Source: a virus
Lineage: Duplodnaviria; Heunggongvirae; Uroviricota; Caudoviricetes
IMG/VR virus record: IMGVR_UViG_2541047922_000008
Direction: 5' to 3' (one strand)
Length of the DNA: 18,265 nt
Of this stretch, positions 700 through 17,050 are shown one piece after another. The position numbers and the translations under genes are program-made. Each line of letters starts with the position of its first letter. The stretch's first letter is position 1. The notes beneath the pieces were generated by a model. That model had not been told where the DNA came from, ran no database searches, and worked only from the letters and a program-made list of their open reading frames with translations.

Positions 700-1014
700 T
701 CACGATAGTTCCGTTTTGTTGAATTCAATTATATCAAGGTCAGAACTTTCGTAATCCTTACCGAATAAAGCAAAACATATCGCGTCAAGTTCTCTCTTAT
801 GTTTGGACGCCCGATCATAATTACCACCCCAACAGCAAATGAATCCACCAAGTACTGCTGATTCAAAAAGTAATGATGCTGCATCAATATGTCTGAACCA
901 GGAGTCTATAAGTAAAGCAGAGAGTGATATTAATGTTCCCCACCCGCCAATCCTTCTCCATTTCTCAGCTTCATATTTAAGAGAAGCAATATATTCAATT
1001 TTATCTCTCGTCAT
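700..1014 (-). CDS. small membrane protein (104 aa, two predicted hydrophobic helices), last gene of the cargo operon
   Basis: ORF with ATG overlapping the upstream stop (TGATG at 1012-1016). Hydrophobic stretches WGTLISLSALLIDSWF and ASLLFESAVLGGFICCWGG. About 35% GC, versus about 50% for the neighbouring genes. Confidence 0.6.
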   Translation of the reverse strand: MTRDKIEYIASLKYEAEKWRRIGGWGTLISLSALLIDSWFRHIDAASLLFESAVLGGFICCWGGNYDRASKHKRELDAICFALFGKDYESSDLDIIEFNKTELS

Positions 1015-3770
1015 CAGTTCCCCACCGCCTTTCCAAAATCCGGTGCTCTACGTGGCGCAATAGCACCCGGTTCCCACCAACTCGTTATGTCGAACTCCCG
1101 TTGCGAGCGGTCCCTTACTCGATCATTGTAACCAGGGTTTGCCATCTCCTGAAGTTGTTGCAATATCAGGTGATTGGTTATCGCTTTCGCATACCACAGG
1201 TTTGCGAATGGGGTGATCATGCGGGCTGTTTTCAGTGCATCGGCACCGAATGATGTTTCTTCACCCTGTAGAGCCTTCTGTGGGTTAGTAATCAGTAATT
1301 TTGTTAACTGCTCTGCAAAGCTCAACACAGGGCCCCCCATAGTGGCACCGATGCTGGAGCCATATTGCGTATGGTCCTGGAAAATAAAATCACCGTAGAT
1401 ACCGAACGAACCACCTTTCAGTAAAGCCTGAACCCATGTGGTTGGTTTTGTCATATCCAGCGGATCATTACCATTTAACAAACTGTTCATCTGGATCGCA
1501 AACATACCAGCAAGAGTTGTTCCCCCGATATATGAGGCCAGAAATTTAATGGCCGGAACGGTGTCCAAATCCCGTGTTCTGTTAACAAGTTGCCGAAATC
1601 CAGCAAATGGGGTTGTTTTGAAGAGCATGAAGCTCTTCATTAACTCGCCAGCATCATCACGGGCATATGTATCAATACCCGTAGCGGTGGTCACAGCATT
1701 GGTCATCTCACCGTGCGTAATTCCCAGCAATTTCTGGGCTGCTTCAGCGCGTGCATTACGAATCATGCGCGTGATGGTCTGCTCAGCCTCAGCGTCGAAT
1801 GCTTCTTTCATCCGTTTCAGGCGTTCTGGAGGGAGATCTCCAAGGGCTGCCAGTGCCTTTTCACTCCCGGCACGAATCCGGGTAATACGGTCTGCCATAA
1901 TGTCGGCTATTACGTTATCGGGCACAGCGTAAATCGCGTCTGGCGTCATCCCCATATGCCCGGCAGTAGTCATCGGCCTGAGTTCTGCCGCTGCCATGAT
2001 GGCCCAGTCCTCATTGCTCCATCCCTTGTTAGCCAGAATGGTTTTATCGGTTCCTTTCATATCGTCCAGCGTCTTAAATTTTCTGGTCAGCTCGCCAATG
2101 TTTTTGTACATCAGGAGACCAAACGACGCTTTGTTTGCGCGGTCCATAGCGATCAGCCCGGACCACTTCAGTGTCTTCTCTGCGAACCAGCCAGTTATGC
2201 CGCGAGACAAGTCAAACCCGCCCATTTTCGAAACCACAGCAGCATGTGAATCCACCAGCAGACCGAGTTCAGCATTCGCCTTTTTGGCATCTCCACTAAA
2301 CAGGTTTTTGATAGTGTTAACGGAAAGCCGCATTCCACCACGGGTAAAGCCCAGCGCCTGCGCATTTGCCCGCATAATTGCCTGGTCGCTGGTTGCTGTC
2401 AGTACGCTGGTGCCAAGCATGGCGCTGGTCATCAGGTTACGCAGACCACCAACTGCTGAAGAGAACACACTCGATGAAGCGACACCATTTAGGCCAGCCA
2501 TTGAGTTGAACATACGGGCAACTAATTTGGCCTCATCCTCCATTTCTTTTTTGCGTTTCCCGCCTGTTACTGCGCGCTTATAGATGCGATCCAGTACCAG
2601 GGAAAAGTTTCTTTCGGCGTCCGGACCAAAGGCTTTAACGACGCCCAAATCCCTGGATGATGATTGCAGGTGCGACATCATCACCCCCACCAGCGGCTGC
2701 TGAGTGTATCGCTCCATATAGGCGAAGTGTGACTGCGCATCCTTGAACGCCATCACCCTGTGCTGAGAACCACGGCTCTTTATTCCTCCGGCTCCCATAA
2801 ATGTACCAGGCTCAATTTTGTTTGCCCCATCAGTGGCCTTCGTTTCAAAGATCGCTTCCAGTGCCTGACGGTACTCGACGTCATTCATAATGCTGCCGTC
2901 AGGATTAACGTAATTGCTGCGATCCTGCGTGTTGTAAGCGTCATCAACCCATTTCTGGCGGGCAAACTCAATCGGTGGCTGGCGACCTGAAAGACGTGCT
3001 GTAGCTTGCTCTGCCACTGGTAACGATGCCAGCCATTCTTCGCGCCCGGCATTGCGAATAAGGTCAGCATCATCCACATATGGCGTATGCCAGTCTTCTC
3101 GCAGGCCTATGTCAAAGCCATTGTCGTTCATCTCATGACGAACACGGCCTGTTACATCCTTCCAAATCTGTGCAATTTTCTTCGCCAGGGGATTCCCGGT
3201 ATCTTCGCCATATATTTCTTTCAGGATCTGGAGTTGTGCAGACTTTGCCGCCTGCCTGTCGAATACACTCCGAAACCGCTGCTCTCCAAGCGCCCTGCTC
3301 TGCTCGAAGAATTTGCGGACGTCATCACCTGCTTTTAGAAGTTCAGCACTGAGCTGACGGGACCAGTCCTGATATGCCCCAATTGCAAGCTCTTCAGCAG
3401 AAGTAACGGAGATATCAGCTTTGTCTCTCGATCGTCGGCCAGCAAAAATAAACTGCTGCAAATTAACAGGTGTCTGCTGATCAGGCGGGATGTTAGCATC
3501 GAGAGTGTCAGTAATTTTACTGATGGCGATCGCATTCTGGGCAACACGCTGTCTTTTCTTGTACACATCATGAACCACACGCTGGCGAACCAGTTCTGCA
3601 GCATCCATGTATGTTTGAGCATCAGGAATACCACTTTTGCCTTCCATTGCATTCTTTCTGTGCACTTGCCGCACAGCTTCTTTGATACGATCTTCGATAT
3701 TTTTCAGCTCATCAGCCTTTGGCTGGCGACCAAGTGTCTGCGCAATAGCTTCAACACATGCCTGTTTCAT
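1014..3770 (-). CDS. giant protein C (about 918 aa), unknown function, Gly/Ser/Ala-rich hydrophobic central region, no P-loop
   Basis: Long ORF. The ORF track starts at a GTG at 3791; I prefer the ATG at 3770, which overlaps the stop of protein B as TAATG (3768-3772), the same junction as between A and B. No Walker A motif seen. Confidence 0.85.
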   Translation of the reverse strand: MKQACVEAIAQTLGRQPKADELKNIEDRIKEAVRQVHRKNAMEGKSGIPDAQTYMDAAELVRQRVVHDVYKKRQRVAQNAIAISKITDTLDANIPPDQQTPVNLQQFIFAGRRSRDKADISVTSAEELAIGAYQDWSRQLSAELLKAGDDVRKFFEQSRALGEQRFRSVFDRQAAKSAQLQILKEIYGEDTGNPLAKKIAQIWKDVTGRVRHEMNDNGFDIGLREDWHTPYVDDADLIRNAGREEWLASLPVAEQATARLSGRQPPIEFARQKWVDDAYNTQDRSNYVNPDGSIMNDVEYRQALEAIFETKATDGANKIEPGTFMGAGGIKSRGSQHRVMAFKDAQSHFAYMERYTQQPLVGVMMSHLQSSSRDLGVVKAFGPDAERNFSLVLDRIYKRAVTGGKRKKEMEDEAKLVARMFNSMAGLNGVASSSVFSSAVGGLRNLMTSAMLGTSVLTATSDQAIMRANAQALGFTRGGMRLSVNTIKNLFSGDAKKANAELGLLVDSHAAVVSKMGGFDLSRGITGWFAEKTLKWSGLIAMDRANKASFGLLMYKNIGELTRKFKTLDDMKGTDKTILANKGWSNEDWAIMAAAELRPMTTAGHMGMTPDAIYAVPDNVIADIMADRITRIRAGSEKALAALGDLPPERLKRMKEAFDAEAEQTITRMIRNARAEAAQKLLGITHGEMTNAVTTATGIDTYARDDAGELMKSFMLFKTTPFAGFRQLVNRTRDLDTVPAIKFLASYIGGTTLAGMFAIQMNSLLNGNDPLDMTKPTTWVQALLKGGSFGIYGDFIFQDHTQYGSSIGATMGGPVLSFAEQLTKLLITNPQKALQGEETSFGADALKTARMITPFANLWYAKAITNHLILQQLQEMANPGYNDRVRDRSQREFDITSWWEPGAIAPRRAPDFGKAVGN

Positions 3771-5830
3771 TATGGGTTCCTCAAGAAGCACGCTGCCGCT
3801 ACAGAATAAACCTTCGATTCGTTCTGGACTGTCTTAATCTGTTCATCCAACTCAGCCAGGAGATCAGAAAGTTTTGTCGGGTTTCCGGTTTCCGGGTGAG
3901 CTATAGTCAGCTCAGGATTGGCAACAGCCATGTCCCTAGCAGCCATAAGGTCATAGCTGTTGGATGAGAGAACCTGCCCTGTATCTGGATCAACGCTGAC
4001 GTCCCCTCTGTGTTCACCAGCCGATGAGAAAGCACTTTCAGCACGAGGGACAGGCGATTCACTAATTGGCTCTGATGATGTTTCATATCTGACACCATTT
4101 TCTTCAAAAACCTTTTGTATTTCATGGTATTGCTCTTGGTAAGTATCAGATATATCTGATCGCAATGGACCATCAAGCCCTCGCGCCATCCCCCCAACAT
4201 TTACAGGCTGACCATCATTAAGTTGCCTGTATGCTTCATCCATGGCGTCAACATGGCTGTTGATGCTCTCATTGCTGGTGTGAAGCACTGGTGACGATTC
4301 AATATCGTAATGAAGCCCCTCATTCAAAATGTGGGCTGCATCAATATCGCTTGGTTTTATTCTTTCCCTCGCCCGGATACCAAAAACTTTTTCTACTGCG
4401 GCTTCCAGTTTCATATTGCGAAGACGCATACTTACGAGTAACCGTAACTGCTCAGGTGTAACGGTTCCAACCTGAATACCACTGTATCTGAATATATAGG
4501 CTTTAAAACCTGAAATAATTTTTTCCCATGATGAAACGCTTGTCTTTAGAGATGGATTTACTGCATGTGCGGCAACTTCTTCAGCGTACAACCACTCAGG
4601 ATATGTTTCAGGGTACTCACCCCTTTTCTTATATTCATAATATTGTGACATCCCATATGCAAATTCAGGATAGTCAGAATGCTTGTTTGCAGATTTAAGT
4701 ACAGCATTAGCTAGCTTTCTGGCCTTCCAGTCAGGGTAATGGCGCTGCTCAAGATGAAGCGCCTCGTGATGAAGGGTTTCTAACAGTTCTTCATGGTCTT
4801 TTAATCCATTAATATTTATTCTTATTATTGGTTCTTTTCCAGAAGCTACTGTCACATGACCTTTATTCAGAAGTATTTCTCCATCACTATTTTTTATTGC
4901 TGGTTCATTAATAAGTTCTATTACTCCTGAATCAGATAAATCACGAACCATTGACTCAATGTTACCATCAGGAGATTGCTGATAATGTTCACCAAAAGTT
5001 GATTTTATTTCTTCTGCAGAAATGTTCGACTCTGTACCATCATGGTTATTATGGGTAGTCAGGTGATGAACGCCACCAAAGACCCCGCCTAAAACGGCAT
5101 CGACTAACATCGCCTGACCGTCAAATACCCGGTACTGTTTTGCCATCTCCGTGTAGCCTTTTTCCTCCAGTGTTGCGCCGACAGAGTAACGGTTCAGTCC
5201 ACCGAATCCGGTGTTGATTGCCACACCTGAGGCAATGCGCGTTGCCAGTGTGGTGCCGACGGCAGCGGGTAAGGCCATACCCACAGCATTGAAAAGGCTT
5301 TGCTGCGTTGCCAGGTTACGCGCCGTAGCCTCGTCTACTCCCTTCCCTTTAAAATCCTGATAGGACTGCTCATACGTAGAACTGAAAGCTGTAGCAGCGC
5401 CGATGAGGGGACCGCCAAACATAGTTGTTCCGATTGCAGGAACAAATTTACCAAGCTCATTTAATACCTCAGCCGCCATTCCCTGACTGCCTGCATCAGG
5501 CTTCACATAGCTGCGGGCATCCTGTAACTGTTTTCCGATCGTGTCGTATGTATCATTCAGTGTTTTGTCAGCATCAGGGAACATCTCCCGAAAAATATTA
5601 ACAGTCGGTGCCACGTCTGCGGTAAATGCCGGATCGCTAATCAGGCGCTTGCTGAATCCGACGGCAGACTGCGCGAGACCGAGAGTCCCCTCCGCCACGC
5701 CGCTCAAAAGTGCAGTACCTGAACCCTGGAAGGGAGTCGGATCGTAGTCTTCTGGCCTTGCTGGGTTGGCAACTGTTTTGTCGTCAATCCATGCCTGACC
5801 TTCTGGAGCCAAAGAAAAAACATCAGACAT
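3770..5830 (-). CDS. giant protein B (686 aa), N-terminal glycine-rich hydrophobic segments plus a single HExxH zincin-type motif
   Basis: Long ORF whose ATG overlaps the stop of protein A (TAATG at 5828-5832). HHEALHLEQ at residues 354-362 (nt 4745-4771). GxxxG-rich hydrophobic stretches across residues about 120-260. No P-loop. Confidence 0.85.
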   Translation of the reverse strand: MSDVFSLAPEGQAWIDDKTVANPARPEDYDPTPFQGSGTALLSGVAEGTLGLAQSAVGFSKRLISDPAFTADVAPTVNIFREMFPDADKTLNDTYDTIGKQLQDARSYVKPDAGSQGMAAEVLNELGKFVPAIGTTMFGGPLIGAATAFSSTYEQSYQDFKGKGVDEATARNLATQQSLFNAVGMALPAAVGTTLATRIASGVAINTGFGGLNRYSVGATLEEKGYTEMAKQYRVFDGQAMLVDAVLGGVFGGVHHLTTHNNHDGTESNISAEEIKSTFGEHYQQSPDGNIESMVRDLSDSGVIELINEPAIKNSDGEILLNKGHVTVASGKEPIIRININGLKDHEELLETLHHEALHLEQRHYPDWKARKLANAVLKSANKHSDYPEFAYGMSQYYEYKKRGEYPETYPEWLYAEEVAAHAVNPSLKTSVSSWEKIISGFKAYIFRYSGIQVGTVTPEQLRLLVSMRLRNMKLEAAVEKVFGIRARERIKPSDIDAAHILNEGLHYDIESSPVLHTSNESINSHVDAMDEAYRQLNDGQPVNVGGMARGLDGPLRSDISDTYQEQYHEIQKVFEENGVRYETSSEPISESPVPRAESAFSSAGEHRGDVSVDPDTGQVLSSNSYDLMAARDMAVANPELTIAHPETGNPTKLSDLLAELDEQIKTVQNESKVYSVAAACFLRNP

Positions 5831-8361
5831 TATTCAACCCTCACGACAATAGCTTCATTGGTTCTGGGATCTGTTGCCCAGCGTCCGCTACCATTTACCA
5901 GCCGATACCGGTTATTGCCGATATTAACTGGTGTGAAGTTTGACACTGCATTTACGTTAAGTCCGGCTTCTTTCAGTGCTTGTTTCGCAGATGTGGTATA
6001 GCGATCTTTGAAAGTAGATTTATCCATGCCGAAAGGCATTACAACGTCGCCGCCATTAAAATCCTTGTATATACCGCCAGTAGCATACTTCACGGCATCA
6101 GCAACAGTGTCTGTATCAGGCATACTGGTTCTTACCGTAGATGCATCACCTGATTGATAAGCTATTCCTGCGTAAGCGGCTTTGAAAAGGCTATAACTGA
6201 TCTGACGTAACTGCGGGTTACGGGCAAATGCGTTACCTACCTGTTTGTCGAAAGCGTCTTTCATCTTATCTTCGCTCGGCAACTGTACCGGAGTTATGCC
6301 CGCATTCTTCATGGCCTTCGTCGGATTCAGTAGTTGGTCACCGGAAAGAATAACCTTTGCAACGTCGTACTTGTTCATCGTCGGCTTATACCCGATGAAC
6401 TGACTATATGGGATCGACGGTCTGGTGTTATCGTACTGATTATCCGGCGTGCCCAGCAGCAGCGCAGAATAGGCTGTTGCCGCACTGTTCGGAGCAATTA
6501 CAGATGCCACCTGCCGTATTGCTGGCGCAGGCAGCTTCTCCCCCATGCTCTGCAACAGTTTAATTGTCTGGTCAACGTTCTGAGTGCCGCGCACCTGCTG
6601 TGCCAGCGCAGCCGCCTCTTCACTGTTGAGGATTGGGGCATTAATTCCCAACGCGCGTAAGCTTTCCTGCGACGAGAAACGGTTAGCCACCTCGGCAGTG
6701 ATGTCGTCAGGGTTGTTGCTGGTGATCGGCTTATAGGCTCCGATTTCCACCGCTGCACTAAACGGATTATTCTGCCTCTGGGTTATTACCTTCGTGGCTG
6801 CCGCCGATACCCGGTCGAATAACTCCGCACGAGACGCATACCCCTCCCCTGTCTCACCAGTATCCGGGCGTAATTGCTCAACATATGCGGTAATGCTGCT
6901 TGTCGGCATGTTGCGGAAAGAGCCTATATACTGTCCGGCGATCTGCAAATTTCTGAACTCGGTATATCGCAGGTTTCCTTCTCTGACACCATAAGCAGCA
7001 ATGAACTCACCCTCACCAGGCGGGTTAGGAAATTCAACGCCACGCATATACGCAGCCGTTGCATCGCGAACCCGGCTTTCGAGCATCGTTCTATATTCAG
7101 CCTGCTGCTGTCTGGCTAATGCATCCGTCTGTCGCAACACGCTGGCCTGATCTGATTCACTTAAAGCATCGAACCAAGCTACACCGGTATAACGTTTATT
7201 TTTTGTCGGTAGCTGAGAAAGCCCCAGTGCGGCACTAACGCCAGCGGCCAATTGCTGATCACTGTACGGCTGACTGCCTTGCTCATGATGAATAATTGCT
7301 TTGCACAGAGATTTCAGTGTGTCAGGATTTGATGCGTCAAGCGGCTGGTCAGGAGTTACACCGAGCTGAGCACATACTGCCCGTATATAAGCATCAGTTT
7401 TATTATCATCACTGGCCGGTGCCCAGCGATTAATTATTTCGCTGATGGTGTCATAACCCTGACGCTGATACGACAGCAAATTGCGACCAAGCGCGCGAAT
7501 ACCGTGTTCAGGGGTTTCGAATTTGGCAAAGCGACCATCATCACCAGTCTGCCCAACCCACGGATTAGTTTTGCTGTATTCAAGATTGCCGGGGTTATTG
7601 TTGCGTATACCGCGGGTACGATCGGAAGAGCCACTATCTGCTACAGCACGGCGAGATCCAGCAGCAGTATCGCTTAACTCGCCGTTTTGCTGTCTTACCT
7701 GAAGATAGTTTGCTCCAATAGCATTTTGAGCAGTTGCTTTTGCTGTTGCTTCTTTAAACTCGATTTTCTTGGCCTGGATTTGCTCGTCGCTCCAGCCATG
7801 CGCAATACCGTAATCCTCAATTTGCTGGAAAGTTTGCGTATTAGCCAATATGTATGCTGCGTTGTCGCCATATAATGCTGAGGCATTTTTACCATTATTC
7901 AGCAGTGTCGCCTGAAACTGGCCTTCTTCGTAGGCATTTATTTGCCCTATCTCGTACCTCCCGGCCTGCGTAGCGAACTGAATACGCTGCTGCTGCGCCT
8001 GCTGCATGAAAGCATTACGAGCCTGTTCATCCGGCAGCGACATAGCCAGTTGTTCGATCTGAGCATCAAACTGCTGTGTATACTCATGGCCTTTTCCAAT
8101 AGCATTTTTCCCTTTCAGGTTAAGCAATCCTGTTTCAGGATTATTCAGCAGATCACTGCCTGTCTGACTGAGTTTAAGGGATGCCTCCTGAACCAAGGCA
8201 ATATTGGCGCGCTGTTTTGCCTGACCAAGAACATCAATTGCCTCTGTCCCTGCCCGAACAAAAGCATCACCAATACCTGGCTGAGAAAACGTCTGCAAGC
8301 CTGCTGACTGAACTCCACGGCTCTCAACCTGGCGTCCGGATACTGTTGGTACGACTGGCAT
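5830..8361 (-). CDS. giant protein A (843 aa), Q/A/N-rich, unknown function
   Basis: Long ORF with ATG at 8361 preceded by an AGGGGG Shine-Dalgarno. Sharply defined block TRGIRNNNPGNLEYSKTNPWVGQTGDDGRFAKFETPEHGIRALGRNLLSYQ at residues 248-299. No P-loop. Confidence 0.85.
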   Translation of the reverse strand: MPVVPTVSGRQVESRGVQSAGLQTFSQPGIGDAFVRAGTEAIDVLGQAKQRANIALVQEASLKLSQTGSDLLNNPETGLLNLKGKNAIGKGHEYTQQFDAQIEQLAMSLPDEQARNAFMQQAQQQRIQFATQAGRYEIGQINAYEEGQFQATLLNNGKNASALYGDNAAYILANTQTFQQIEDYGIAHGWSDEQIQAKKIEFKEATAKATAQNAIGANYLQVRQQNGELSDTAAGSRRAVADSGSSDRTRGIRNNNPGNLEYSKTNPWVGQTGDDGRFAKFETPEHGIRALGRNLLSYQRQGYDTISEIINRWAPASDDNKTDAYIRAVCAQLGVTPDQPLDASNPDTLKSLCKAIIHHEQGSQPYSDQQLAAGVSAALGLSQLPTKNKRYTGVAWFDALSESDQASVLRQTDALARQQQAEYRTMLESRVRDATAAYMRGVEFPNPPGEGEFIAAYGVREGNLRYTEFRNLQIAGQYIGSFRNMPTSSITAYVEQLRPDTGETGEGYASRAELFDRVSAAATKVITQRQNNPFSAAVEIGAYKPITSNNPDDITAEVANRFSSQESLRALGINAPILNSEEAAALAQQVRGTQNVDQTIKLLQSMGEKLPAPAIRQVASVIAPNSAATAYSALLLGTPDNQYDNTRPSIPYSQFIGYKPTMNKYDVAKVILSGDQLLNPTKAMKNAGITPVQLPSEDKMKDAFDKQVGNAFARNPQLRQISYSLFKAAYAGIAYQSGDASTVRTSMPDTDTVADAVKYATGGIYKDFNGGDVVMPFGMDKSTFKDRYTTSAKQALKEAGLNVNAVSNFTPVNIGNNRYRLVNGSGRWATDPRTNEAIVVRVE

Positions 8362-9030: not shown

Positions 9031-9447
9031 TTAGCCTCCGACTCTTCCGTAGTGCTGTTCTGGTGGATTCACATAGCCCCTTTCTTGCAGGTATTCGCGA
9101 ATATCAGACATCAGGAGACGGTTAACCGTGCTCTTGTCTTTTCTCCGGTAAAGGCGTCTGGTGATCATGAAGTAGTTAGCAATGATCTCCGGTATATCCC
9201 TGACGCTGATACATGCTGTATGCTGGTCAATAGCTTCAATCATCTCTTCACGAGTTACAAAAGTCTGGCGTAAACGAGTGATCACACCATGTACATCTGA
9301 ATGATCATTTATACGCTTATTTTGGCGCTTCGCGCTCTCGACTGTGACACTGACAACAATGTCAACTCTTTGTTTTTCCGCAATTTCATCCACAATGTGA
9401 TCACCTGCACGGCGACCATGTGCGTGATCATTTCTTACTATTTCCAT
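9031..9447 (-). CDS. hypothetical protein (138 aa)
   Basis: ORF overlapping the ProQ/FinO gene stop by 20 nt, consistent with co-transcription. No motif recognised. Confidence 0.5.
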
Positions 9448-9925
9448 TCATCTCCTCCAGTAGTTTTCCTGCGTGCGTCTGTTGTAGTGGTGTTACCTCG
9501 CCGCACGGCTGGCCTTTCAGGTCGTAACGCGCGCCACCAGCTACCAGGGCGCGGTAATAGCGCGGAGTCTGCACATAACGCGCCAGCGTTGCGCGTAGTG
9601 TTCCCTGTCCGAGTGAAATACCTCTCGCGGCAATATCCTGTATCAGGTCGTCAAATATCCCCACCTTAAGCGGCTTAGGTGATTCCGGGCTGAATAATTC
9701 AGGCCATAGCTCAATAAGACGGTTAACGCGTCTGCGGTTTTTACGCTGCTGTTTGGTCATACGCCGCCGCGGTGTTGCTCCTGTGAGCTTCTGCTGTGTG
9801 TTCTGGTTATCTGGCATCACTTTATGCGCCGATGTGGTTTTATTCTGCTGCTGCGCCGCCTGTGCTGTTTTCTGCGGCGTGCCGTAAATGCCCTTCGGTT
9901 TTCTGTTTATGGTCAGCTTTGTCAT
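9428..9925 (-). CDS. ProQ/FinO-domain RNA-binding protein
   Basis: [18 protein letters not shown] ... [49 protein letters not shown] tracks the ProQ N-terminal domain (PLKIGIFQDL ... LRSALRLYTSSWRYLYG ... RVDLDGNPCGEL ... ARKQLEE). Confidence 0.85.
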
Positions 9926-13025: not shown

Positions 13026-13283
13026 TTATTTCCCGGTATGGGGTTCTTCTTTATATTTATGGGCTAACAAATCTGGTAATTGCCTGTATTTATCCTCGGC
13101 AATATATTCAGAATAATCGACAGCACTGTTCAGTATATCTAACGCCGTTTCATGCTCCAGATTCGAAACTATAAGGAACGTTGCTACTTTTAGCATATTC
13201 GCGATATGCAAAAGAGCATCAATTTCATTTTTTGGCGCTTCACTGAATTTTTGCTCCAGAAGAATAAATCGTTCATCACGCAT
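13026..13283 (-). CDS. hypothetical protein (85 aa), AT-rich
   Basis: ORF 2 nt upstream of the 100-aa gene. Markedly AT-rich relative to neighbours. Confidence 0.5.
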   Translation of the reverse strand: MRDERFILLEQKFSEAPKNEIDALLHIANMLKVATFLIVSNLEHETALDILNSAVDYSEYIAEDKYRQLPDLLAHKYKEEPHTGK

Positions 13284-13479
13284 AGTATTCCCCCTGACGG
13301 ATGCGGGCAGTAAATACCATCACGCAGCCAGTCGGGGATTGCTGACGGGCTTCCTGTTCGCTGGCGGCCTCGATGTGTATTACGCGTGGTTGTGCGGTGC
13401 TCAGGGCGATAAAACGCCAGATGTATTTATTCAGGTTGTGCGAGTCCCGCCCTTGCGGGTGTGTGGTATGATTTAACAT
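13276..13479 (-). CDS. hypothetical small protein (67 aa), first gene of the leftward replication operon
   Basis: ATG at 13479 preceded by GAGGTAG. It is the 3' part of the 396-aa track ORF, whose upstream part runs through the operator palindromes and antisense to two better-supported plus-strand genes. Confidence 0.35.
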   Translation of the reverse strand: MLNHTTHPQGRDSHNLNKYIWRFIALSTAQPRVIHIEAASEQEARQQSPTGCVMVFTARIRQGEYYA

Positions 13480-13576
13480 AGCTACCTCGATACGCTTTCT
13501 ATCGTTGGTGGTTAGACGCCCTGCATGTGTTGCGAGCACTGCGGGGCGTTGCTTAATTTGAGCAATGCAACCCAAA

Positions 13577-13616
13577 CTGTGCGCACAGATTAAAATCATG
13601 TGTGCGCACATGTCAA
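13577..13616 (-). promoter_or_regulatory. leftward promoter with palindromic operators
   Basis: Perfect -35 TTGACA on the minus strand (13611-13616). It overlaps the perfect 16-bp palindrome CATGTGTGCGCACATG (13597-13612). A perfect 12-bp palindrome CTGTGCGCACAG (13577-13588) lies at the expected transcription start. A half-site TTGTGTGCGCC sits near 13645-13657. The -10 hexamer is weak (TTAATC). Confidence 0.5.
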
Positions 13617-13684
13617 TACTTAACTTCTCACTTTTTTTGCTGTATTGTGTGCGCCCATCAAATCCATTTAAGTGAGGTGTACCA

Positions 13685-13882
13685 ATGTCTAGCGGAAACA
13701 CAAACAACAAATCAGCAAAGAAAAATATTCGATTCCCGCACGAGCTTATAGATGGGATTGATGCCAGTGTTGAACAAGAAAAATTAACTAATCCTAGTGC
13801 TAATTTTTCCGCATGGGTCTTAGATGCCTGTGGACGCAAATTAAAATATGAACAGCGCCGGAAGGCCAAAGAGCAGGAGTAA
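13685..13882 (+). CDS. small ribbon-helix-helix-like DNA-binding protein (65 aa), candidate repressor
   Basis: GAGGTG Shine-Dalgarno 6 nt upstream. NIRFPHELIDGIDASVEQE fits the Arc/MetJ beta-strand plus helix pattern (R-F-P-x-E-L). Transcribed divergently from the operator-bearing promoter. Confidence 0.55.
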   Translation: MSSGNTNNKSAKKNIRFPHELIDGIDASVEQEKLTNPSANFSAWVLDACGRKLKYEQRRKAKEQE

Positions 13883-13939
13883 CCATCACCAGCGCCGTGG
13901 TGCGGTGAACTGTGGCGCACAGGGTTACAGGTATCTACG

Positions 13940-14137
13940 ATGACTGACAAATCATTAAAGAAATTATCCTCATCCAGGAAAAAACAACGCAAAAATGCGG
14001 TAAGCGAACAAGAACAGGAAAGATTTGCGCCATGTGCGTTTGTCCTTGAGAAGTTCTTAAAAGAGTACAGGCGCACAAAAATGGAATCGCATACCTGGAA
14101 AACATCGCAGTATGGCGATGCTAAAGAGCAGGAATAG
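13940..14137 (+). CDS. small basic protein (65 aa), hypothetical
   Basis: ORF with a weak Shine-Dalgarno. Its last codons and the about 15 nt after the stop repeat the 3' end of the upstream small gene. Confidence 0.4.
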   Translation: MTDKSLKKLSSSRKKQRKNAVSEQEQERFAPCAFVLEKFLKEYRRTKMESHTWKTSQYGDAKEQE

Positions 14138-14227
14138 CCCACCAGCAAGCCAGCACACTGATCACATTGCCCACCAGCCGCAAATCTGGCATTGTTGGCG
14201 ATGCGTTTGATTTCCTTTGTTCCCACT

Positions 14228-14255
14228 GGCGACCTATCCCGGTCGCCTTTGTTTT
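14228..14255 (+). terminator. intrinsic terminator for the plus-strand small-gene transcript
   Basis: GGCGACC-TATCCC-GGTCGCC hairpin (14228-14247) followed by TTTGTTTT. No T-run on the minus strand. Confidence 0.5.
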
Positions 14256-14305
14256 GCCTGTTATCCAGCAACGGGGCGCTTTTTCTTTCTGTAACGTTCG
14301 GATCG

Positions 14306-14863
14306 TTACACATTGCTTTCACCCTCCAGAAAATCAGGCTGATATTTACGCCATAGCGCCCGCTCTTCTCGTTCCAGTGCATCTTTTGCCTCTTTGCATT
14401 GCTGTAACCTGTAACCGCGTTTGCTGGCTTCCTGTTGATATGCAGCCTGACGTTTACTGAAATCATTCAGCATGGCAAACGGAACACCATAACCCCCCGT
14501 TTTGCGGATTGAAGGAATCACCTCGCGGAATACCCAGTTACTGAAACGGTGCGCAAATGTGCCTGGTGTGGAAGCTTTACGGCTGCGGGCGATCAGTTTG
14601 TAGAAACCTGATTCAGAGACAACATTCCAGCTTCTGGCACCACCACGCTTACCGGAATGACCCTCGGTTAAAGCTAGGGTCATTACCTCATCGTTATCCA
14701 GAACTGAAACGGCATCAGTAACATTGCTGATTTCCAGCGCGGCACACACATCAGCGCCAACAAACCACGGCTCGCCGTTGATACTCACTATGCGCACCTG
14801 AATGTCATCGAATTTAATGACAGAGATTTCAGTGCGACCAGCATAAAAGACAGGTTTACGCAT
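14306..14863 (-). CDS. Bro-N domain protein (phage antirepressor family)
   Basis: VIKFDDIQVRIVSINGEPWFVGADVCAALEI matches the Bro-N signature. 8-nt overlap with the upstream gene. Confidence 0.8.
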   Translation of the reverse strand: MRKPVFYAGRTEISVIKFDDIQVRIVSINGEPWFVGADVCAALEISNVTDAVSVLDNDEVMTLALTEGHSGKRGGARSWNVVSESGFYKLIARSRKASTPGTFAHRFSNWVFREVIPSIRKTGGYGVPFAMLNDFSKRQAAYQQEASKRGYRLQQCKEAKDALEREERALWRKYQPDFLEGESNV

Positions 14864-16928: not shown

Positions 16929-17050
16929 ACCTCAGCGTCCTCTACTGTAGTGGCTGTGCCAGCCCGTCGAGGTATACGGTTTTTCGGGAGCGACCCTAGA
17001 CACAGCCTTTTCTTTCGTCGCTCAAAGTCTACTACTGTATACTCAACCAG

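Follow-up and report, generated by a model that had tools for sequence, protein, structure and literature searches.

The window analyzed here, a stretch of 18,265 nt from a viral record (IMG/VR IMGVR_UViG_2541047922_000008), is identical to the 18-kb island of Escherichia coli FDAARGOS_1298, which adjoins tRNA-Gly between actS and yqeG. Our subject is its control region, in which a leftward operon of replication genes, headed by an Icd-like gene, faces away from a small rightward gene for a 65-aa protein of the DUF3950/YlcI-YnfO family (ylcI). AlpA switches on Gram-negative phage-inducible chromosomal islands (PICIs), and it is unclear whether a global repressor exists in them (PMC6092414). 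We regard the control switch in this region as real and widely conserved, with a predicted small Arc-like repressor of an uncharacterized family, and it is richer than an earlier reading made from the letters of the window (the sequence-only reading) had described. Its parts are as follows:

13685-13882, plus strand: gene for the 65-aa DUF3950/YlcI-YnfO protein, a predicted Arc-like ribbon-helix-helix (RHH) repressor
13620-13648, plus strand: rightward promoter P_R of the predicted repressor gene, with -35-like TTAACT (13620-13625), a 17-nt spacer and -10 TATTGT (13643-13648)
13647-13658: operator O3, GTGTGCGCCCAT, its core (13648-13657) a 9/10 match, over the -10/+1 of P_R
13600-13611: operator O2, GTGTGCGCACAT, with a perfect 10-bp core (13601-13610), in the spacer of P_L and abutting its -35
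13577-13588: operator O1, the perfect 12-bp palindrome CTGTGCGCACAG, over the -10/+1 of P_L
13587-13616, minus strand: leftward promoter P_L, with -35 TTGACA (13611-13616), an 18-nt spacer, -10 TAATCT (13587-13592) and a start near 13580, placed from sequence and conservation
13480-13559, plus strand: predicted countertranscript of about 80 nt, based on covariation and strand-specific G.U pairs, with an outer helix (13479-13486/13507-13514), hairpin A (13488-13504), a terminator hairpin (13517-13548) and a T-rich tail (13549-13559)
13464-13472, plus strand: TGGTATGAT, an extended -10 for the promoter of the predicted countertranscript, within the first Icd-like codons, its TATGAT hexamer at 13467-13472
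13276-13479, minus strand: Icd-like (P4 Kil-like) 67-aa gene, the first translated from P_L, with Shine-Dalgarno GAGGT (13484-13488)
13276-14313, minus strand: long read-through open reading frame (ORF) of 345 codons from the ATG at 14311-14313, with the Icd-like ORF inside it and in frame
14306-14313, minus strand: coupling junction ATGTGTAA, where the start of the long ORF overlaps the bro-N stop, with GGAGGG 8 nt upstream

The perfect 10-bp palindrome TGTGCGCACA is present in two copies, at 13578-13587 and 13601-13610, and the 18-kb window holds only three matches to it at up to one mismatch, all inside 80 bp. Given the -10 at 13587-13592 and the -35 at 13611-13616, O1 covers the -10/+1 of P_L and O2 lies in the spacer beside its -35. 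The perfect TTGACA to which the sequence-only reading had drawn attention is present on the minus strand, and its GTCAA core lies at the same place in nearly all of the related loci described below. The leftward -10 is weak, as had been said, whether it is TAATCT with the 18-nt spacer or an alternative TTTAAT with a 16-nt spacer, and a strict sigma-70 scan called neither P_L nor P_R; both promoters were placed by eye and by conservation, and the -35 of P_R is poorly conserved across the related loci. A 12-bp palindrome had correctly been noticed near +1 and corresponds to O1. Two further elements have to be redrawn: the supposedly perfect 16-bp palindrome CATGTGTGCGCACATG (13597-13612) pairs at only seven of eight positions (T clashes with G at 13603/13606), the perfect element near the -35 being the 10-mer at 13601-13610, whose centre is 1 bp off that of the 16-mer; and what had been taken for a half-site toward the RHH gene is in fact a full third copy, TGTGCGCCCA (13648-13657, 9/10), over the rightward -10/+1.

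A profile of YlcI homologs retrieved 45 loci, and two further elements came from a phage collection. These related loci span Enterobacterales, Orbales and Pasteurella (source genera include Serratia, Klebsiella, Rahnella, Pectobacterium, Xenorhabdus, Proteus, Morganella, Pantoea, Gilliamella and Orbus), and 36 of them were scored for operator sites. Their common layout runs from the leftward gene through a conserved leader to O1, then to O2 next to GTCAA, and on past a T-rich stretch and TAT(A/T)GT with O3 to ylcI; GTCAA is conserved across the loci, TAnnnT-like hexamers share the register of the P_L -10, and TAT(A/T)GT is conserved directly 5' of O3. Spacing is fixed in most of the scored loci, with O1 at -23 and O3 at +47 relative to O2, and the best match to the O2 of the same locus has 1.7 mismatches out of 12 in the O1 zone and 2.4 in the O3 zone, as compared with 4.3 and 4.1 when the O2 of other-class loci is used. 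The sites have the general form NGTG-N6-CACN, and their central hexamer sets the class: TGCGCA in the window, Klebsiella, Rahnella and Erwinia, TCCGCA in Gilliamella and Orbus, and further classes with TTTAAA, CA(C/T)A(A/T)A or TGTAGA (GTGTTTAAACAC is an example of an operator of another class). Perfect TGTGCGCACA stands at the O3 position in loci L007, L008, L009 and L031, and identical sites are separated by spacer DNA that has diverged, as a comparison of the window with L008 shows. Two cassettes of different class share one genome in Serratia Ag1 (L003/L006) and in X. kozodoii (L028/L033), and an O157 island carries a divergent YlcI together with three CTGGATTCCAGT-type sites. Taken together, the fixed offsets, the class structure, the diverged spacers and the genomes with two classes argue strongly against a host factor and against chance. 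Among six E. coli loci picked via the icd-like gene, YlcI is annotated in four, a HicB-like RHH protein in one and only the long ORF in one. In E. coli locus L050, a nearly identical Icd-like gene and the leader with its RNA are kept, but the cassette has given way to a different RHH-type gene and to different inverted repeats; the breakpoint falls in the stretch from the RNA terminator to O1.

The 65-aa protein belongs to PF13132 (28.3 bits, cut-off 25) and to NCBIfam NF041551 (59 bits, cut-off 30), and PF13132 is found in all except two of its 115 homologs. Within this family the RFP and FSxWV core is invariant, and the variable residues lie just before the predicted strand. Alignment with hhalign places YlcI KSAKKNIRFPHELIDGIDA on P22 Arc KMPQFNLRWPREVLDLVRK, matching KNIRFPHELID to FNLRWPREVLD in register with the DNA-reading strand (E 0.0056, probability 6.5%), and by this register K12, N14 and R16 of YlcI correspond to Q9, N11 and R13 of Arc, the base-contacting residues in the Arc-operator structure. 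An AF2 model of the monomer shows an extended N-arm followed by two helices. No RHH profile was matched above threshold, the best sub-threshold scores being those of HicB_lk_antitox (E 0.036) and RHH_1 (E 0.24), and a sequence search of the PDB gave a best E of 0.45 with the single YlcI sequence and no match with the profile. The link between the protein and the sites comes from their joint variation: across loci, the distance between operators correlates with the distance between YlcI N-arms (r 0.615; partial Mantel r 0.60, with none of 5000 permutations as high) and much less with the rest of YlcI (r 0.22) or with adjacent DNA (0.28 and 0.18). The arm SAKKN pairs with TGTGCGCACA in Escherichia, Klebsiella, Rahnella and Erwinia, in spite of AlpA and other neighbors that vary or are missing. 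The proposal that a dedicated small RHH-type repressor acts on palindromes over the promoter of the replication operon is thus supported in silico, by membership in DUF3950, by the Arc register and by covariation. No functional study of YlcI, YnfO or DUF3950 was found in the literature.

A DUF3950/YlcI homolog is also encoded in the lambdoid phage O276 (L049, 200-394, at the right end beside cos), and tblastn recovered the homolog from phage Lambda and from 151 further records of lambdoid or Stx-converting phages, the identity again being 43%. No set of three GTG-N6-CAC sites was seen upstream of the lambdoid homolog, which makes it uninformative for the operators, and its role in these phages may differ. 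A search of phage DNA with the switch region gave no matches.

A structured countertranscript opposite the ribosome-binding site of the first leftward gene appears to be a layer that the sequence-only reading had missed. In an alignment of the leader from 36 sequences (A2), a 5-bp hairpin is paired in 100% of cases with four of its five pairs covarying, and a long terminator-like hairpin is also present; overall, 93% of the cells are paired, 15 of 17 pairs have changed on both sides, and none of 500 shuffles equaled this. One G.U pair of the outer helix is found in 32 of the 36 sequences. Cells with G.U on the plus strand number 52, compared with 5 C.A cells that would be G.U on the minus strand, so that selection on the structure acts on the plus strand. 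The window sequence folds at -38 kcal/mol (z -5.7) as plus-strand RNA versus -24 kcal/mol (z -2.5) for the minus strand. A T-rich tail (at least 5 T in 12 nt) follows the long hairpin in 33 of 36 loci, and a TAnnnT hexamer stands at a fixed distance from the inferred RNA 5' end in all 36, even though the codons that it overlaps differ. The Shine-Dalgarno region of the icd-like gene has its complement in the predicted RNA. Rfam, searched with the leader at the gathering threshold and at E up to 10, assigned it to no family, and an int-alpA motif elsewhere is the only match in the window.

The conservation of this RNA, which is at least as strong as that of the operators, together with its survival through module swaps, raises the question of whether the countertranscript is the main brake and the RHH protein merely autoregulates or fine-tunes, being in that case no master repressor. 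There is a precedent in P4, where immunity is exerted by RNA alone (PMC10111431, and our Rfam control). We nevertheless consider this unlikely, as O1 and O2 lie on P_L and not on P_R, keep invariant positions and follow the specificity class of the repressor, a placement that would not be needed for autoregulation alone.

A repressor of another kind could be sought among the remaining island proteins, with AlpA, AntA/Bro-N or the long Eta-like/Icd-like product reading the operators and YlcI having some other job. AlpA-family regulators and proteins of the Bro network are encoded upstream in many loci, and AlpA is the named activator of Gram-negative PICIs (PMC6092414). The distribution of the sites makes this quite improbable: the window and loci L007, L008 and L009 have identical operators but AlpA proteins of 40-48% identity, or none within 4 kb; L007, L008 and L009 lack AntA/Bro-N yet have the YlcI arm in common with the window; L050 combines a nearly identical Icd-like gene with different repeats; and sites over -10/+1 and in a promoter spacer have the geometry of a repressor rather than an activator. 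A host transcription factor, which the sequence-only reading had itself named as the refuting case and which GC-rich palindromes beside promoters might bring to mind, being typical of host regulators, we regard as very improbable, since the core sequence varies from island to island in a single species and even inside one genome; to our knowledge, TGTGCGCACA is also unlike the consensus spacing of CRP, LexA, Fur or FNR. That the palindromes are RNA hairpins or terminators, or arose by chance from (TG)n/(CA)n-like sequence, is hardly credible, for although a terminator scan marks 13612-13597 on the minus strand and two or more 10-bp palindromes of any kind appear in 3% of first-order Markov simulations of the 205-bp region, an identical one appears twice in only 8 of 20000, the central hexamer is non-palindromic in many loci (GTGTAG, CATATA, GGGGTA) and yet recurs three times at the same offsets, and this recurrence across loci is a stronger argument against chance than the simulation.

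A second layer missed by the sequence-only reading is the proposed read-through ORF that holds the predicted repressor gene antisense within it. From its start at the bro-N stop the long ORF runs antisense through the second small rightward ORF (orf65b), ylcI, the operators and the leader, to end as the Icd-like gene, and in the window its frame is open up to 14466 (396 codons). In 33 of 42 related loci this relative frame likewise stays free of stops, over 190 to 723 codons, and the other two antisense frames seldom extend to 100; around 20 loci have an ATGA, GTGA or TAATG junction with the preceding antA/bro gene, within 5 nt of its stop. Pfam has no match for the product, whose N-terminal 120 residues show no conservation. 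Codon periodicity was dropped as a test of frame selection because overlapping frames share wobble positions, and BLOSUM62 scores were used instead: in the overlap, the mean score of substitutions is +0.18 (conservative) for the YlcI frame against -0.86 (radical) for the antisense one, which indicates that the long frame has been kept open while its sequence has not been kept. As the frame is stop-free inside the homolog of phage Lambda too, the evidence for frame selection sits in the flanks. At its end, the Icd-like protein matches NCBIfam phage_ICD_like with 68.6 bits and has weak collinear similarity to the P4 'cI'/kil ORF (27% identity, E 0.17). The long frame is absent from the HicB-like variant locus. 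PGAP annotates long forms in some genomes, and public annotations give the long antisense frame as a gene in L047 (4435-5109, minus), L048 (6997-7971, minus) and L053 (1284-2216, minus), omitting ylcI; it is labeled there as 'transcriptional repressor', 'hypothetical protein' or a 310-aa 'Icd-like protein'. PHROG calls Icd-like proteins 'transcriptional repressor', a label that probably stems from the old 'cI' protein ORF of P4.

We think it probable that the region is the immunity/control module of a PICI-like integrative island, composed of a YlcI repressor, a countertranscript and a read-through override. YlcI dimers of the Arc/Mnt-like RHH type, made from P_R, would bind the three 12-14-bp pseudo-palindromes NGTG-N6-CACN; O1 at the -10/+1 and O2 in the spacer by the -35 would together shut P_L and with it the leftward operon (icd-like, orf85, DUF4222, DUF927 primase-helicase, SSB, ProQ), and O3 over the -10/+1 of P_R would provide autoregulation. 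Positions 9-14 of YlcI, before the β-strand (12 and 14 aligning with Arc Q9 and N11), would choose the central hexamer and so give rise to many 'immunity' classes. The countertranscript, starting at about 13480 and terminating just before O1, would pair with the ribosome-binding region of the icd-like gene, block its translation and silence leaky transcripts from P_L. Once AlpA has activated the upstream alpA-antA-broN operon, the long ORF might be transcribed and, through coupling, translated across ylcI, the operators and the leader; this would collide with ylcI transcription and, by analogy with P4 eta/kil, allow the replication genes to be expressed in spite of both repressor and RNA.

Several points weigh against this interpretation. 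All three layers are inferred from sequence, which directly displays the sites with their positions, conservation and classes, the covarying RNA structure with its strand bias, and the open, coupled frame. The mapping between arm and operator is not strictly one to one, as the TGCGCA core also occurs with the arm STKKG in L012, and SEKKN in L026 goes with a different core; operator and arm lie less than 100 bp apart, so that linkage may contribute to the correlation. P_L has a poor -10 and an 18-nt spacer, and the 23-bp spacing of O1 and O2 is unusual for cooperative RHH dimers. YlcI served as the bait for related loci, which partly explains why it is always present. In about 9 of 42 loci the long frame is interrupted, and the stop-free homolog of phage Lambda suggests that openness within the gene may be intrinsic.

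The module is P22 immI-like in its repressor logic and P4-like in its nested read-through. The immI region of P22 comprises the RHH repressors Mnt and Arc, the divergent promoters Pant and Pmnt and the sar antisense RNA. As there, a small RHH repressor would here diverge from the operon that it represses, the operators overlap back-to-back promoters, a short antisense RNA would cover a ribosome-binding site, and the N-arm of YlcI resembles Arc. Unlike immI, the family here is DUF3950, three separate 12-14-bp sites 23 and 47 bp apart take the place of one 21-bp/17-bp operator, the target is the icd-like and primase operon instead of ant, and the repressor gene lies antisense inside a translated ORF. 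In P4, PLE lies inside eta, kil is nested, CI RNA/seqA is present and late read-through comes from PLL; PMC10111431, citing Forti 1999, gives the proposal that translation of the long ORF (eta) from the late promoter PLL overrides immunity. Shared with P4 are a short killer/Icd-like ORF nested in frame, a long ORF with its start upstream of the internal promoter, and the coupling of that long ORF to an upstream regulator operon. Immunity here would instead depend on a protein repressor and an opposite-strand RNA, the similarity of Kil to the Icd-like protein is marginal, and neither C4/CI nor isrK/seqA RNAs were found in the window (E up to 10) or in 16 related loci (gathering threshold), where the P4 control was positive.

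The Stl/Rpr systems of Gram-positive PICIs (Staphylococcus aureus pathogenicity islands, SaPIs) likewise have a divergent regulatory pair, flanked by int and the replication module, in which a repressor quiets the island (PMC6092414). Unlike the protein predicted here, these repressors are larger, of the helix-turn-helix type, and are released by helper-phage proteins; for Gram-negative elements, the route described is activation by AlpA. A final resemblance concerns the leader, which has a sub-threshold Rfam match (13478-13551, minus strand, 18.3 bits) to the R1162 plasmid antisense-RNA family (RF00043). The R1162/RSF1010 countertranscript, too, measures about 75-80 nt and faces a replication gene at its leader and ribosome-binding site, and the leader here shows, as in that family, two hairpins separated by a CUAACCACCAAC-like linker, but at 18.3 bits against a gathering score of 55 the leader is not a member, and genetic context and proteins differ. 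The similarity may reflect distant relatedness or convergence with the control of RSF1010 repA.

The wider gene content fits the AlpA/primase/PerC type of Gram-negative PICI (compare EcCIMP1, PMC11773190). From the right end, the minus strand carries integrase, the int-alpA RNA motif, a 267-aa ORF, AlpA, AntA and Bro-N and, past the switch, the Icd-like gene, an 85-aa ORF, DUF4222, the DUF927 primase-helicase, SSB and a ProQ/FinO protein, followed by a frameshifted PerC and three large genes of unknown kind. On the plus strand, in the opposite orientation, lie two small genes, ylcI and a second 65-aa ORF. Taking as the definition of a PICI an integrase, alpA and a primase/replication module in one island with a specific attachment site and without lysis or tail genes, we find int, AlpA and the DUF927 primase-helicase beside tRNA-Gly. 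Among packaging and interference genes, no terS, capsid or rpp gene was recognized in the island, and the capsid-forming elements L047 and L048 carry related cassettes. The int-alpA RNA motif (RF02996, 46.9 bits, 16939-17006, minus) lies between the integrase and the 267-aa ORF and is also found in 5 of 16 related loci. The ProQ/FinO-family gene (9428-9925, minus) belongs to the very operon targeted by the predicted countertranscript, and its product could be a chaperone of that RNA, like FinO for FinP. At the distal end (700-8361, minus), three co-directional large ORFs (843, 686 and 925 aa) and a 104-aa ORF have no Pfam and no PADLOC matches, and form a cargo operon that is possibly a new defense system. 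Two further features lie downstream of ylcI:

13940-14137, plus strand: second 65-aa ORF (phrog_21027), not conserved in related loci
14228-14257, plus strand: terminator-like hairpin with a T run, which would end the ylcI-orf65b transcript

The second ORF has in common with YlcI only KSxKK and the AKEQE tail (region 13883-14137, plus), and upstream of it TGTGGCGCACA (13910-13920) is a copy of the operator with a 1-nt insertion; the region may be a decayed tandem copy of O3-ylcI. As a fourth operator 13910-13920 was rejected, having the insertion and being seen in this window only, and the ORF was rejected as a partner or co-repressor because it is missing from other loci.

The statement of the sequence-only reading that Gram-negative PICIs are described without a defined repressor agrees with PMC6092414; the word 'repressor' is absent from a preprint on capsid-forming PICIs (cf-PICIs), and in the literature on PICIs and cf-PICIs we found no defined repressor for Gram-negative PICIs. 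The module described here offers a directly testable candidate for the repressor that is missing from the account of Gram-negative satellite islands. It gives a possible role to a domain of unknown function that phage Lambda has as well, it adds an RNA without an Rfam family, and it provides a conserved case of a protein gene lying antisense within a translated frame. For annotation, the consequence is that pipelines pick one of the two, the long frame or the small gene, and that the antisense frame appears in phage records as 'transcriptional repressor'. The different operator classes suggest how co-resident islands avoid cross-talk. We further propose, as something possible rather than probable, that YlcI proteins are the quiescence repressors of many Gram-negative PICIs and cf-PICIs, with dozens of operator classes, and that their genes lie antisense in a read-through ORF, so that AlpA-driven read-through would silence the repressor gene and bypass the countertranscript. 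If true, this would be a three-layer flip switch undescribed for any satellite.
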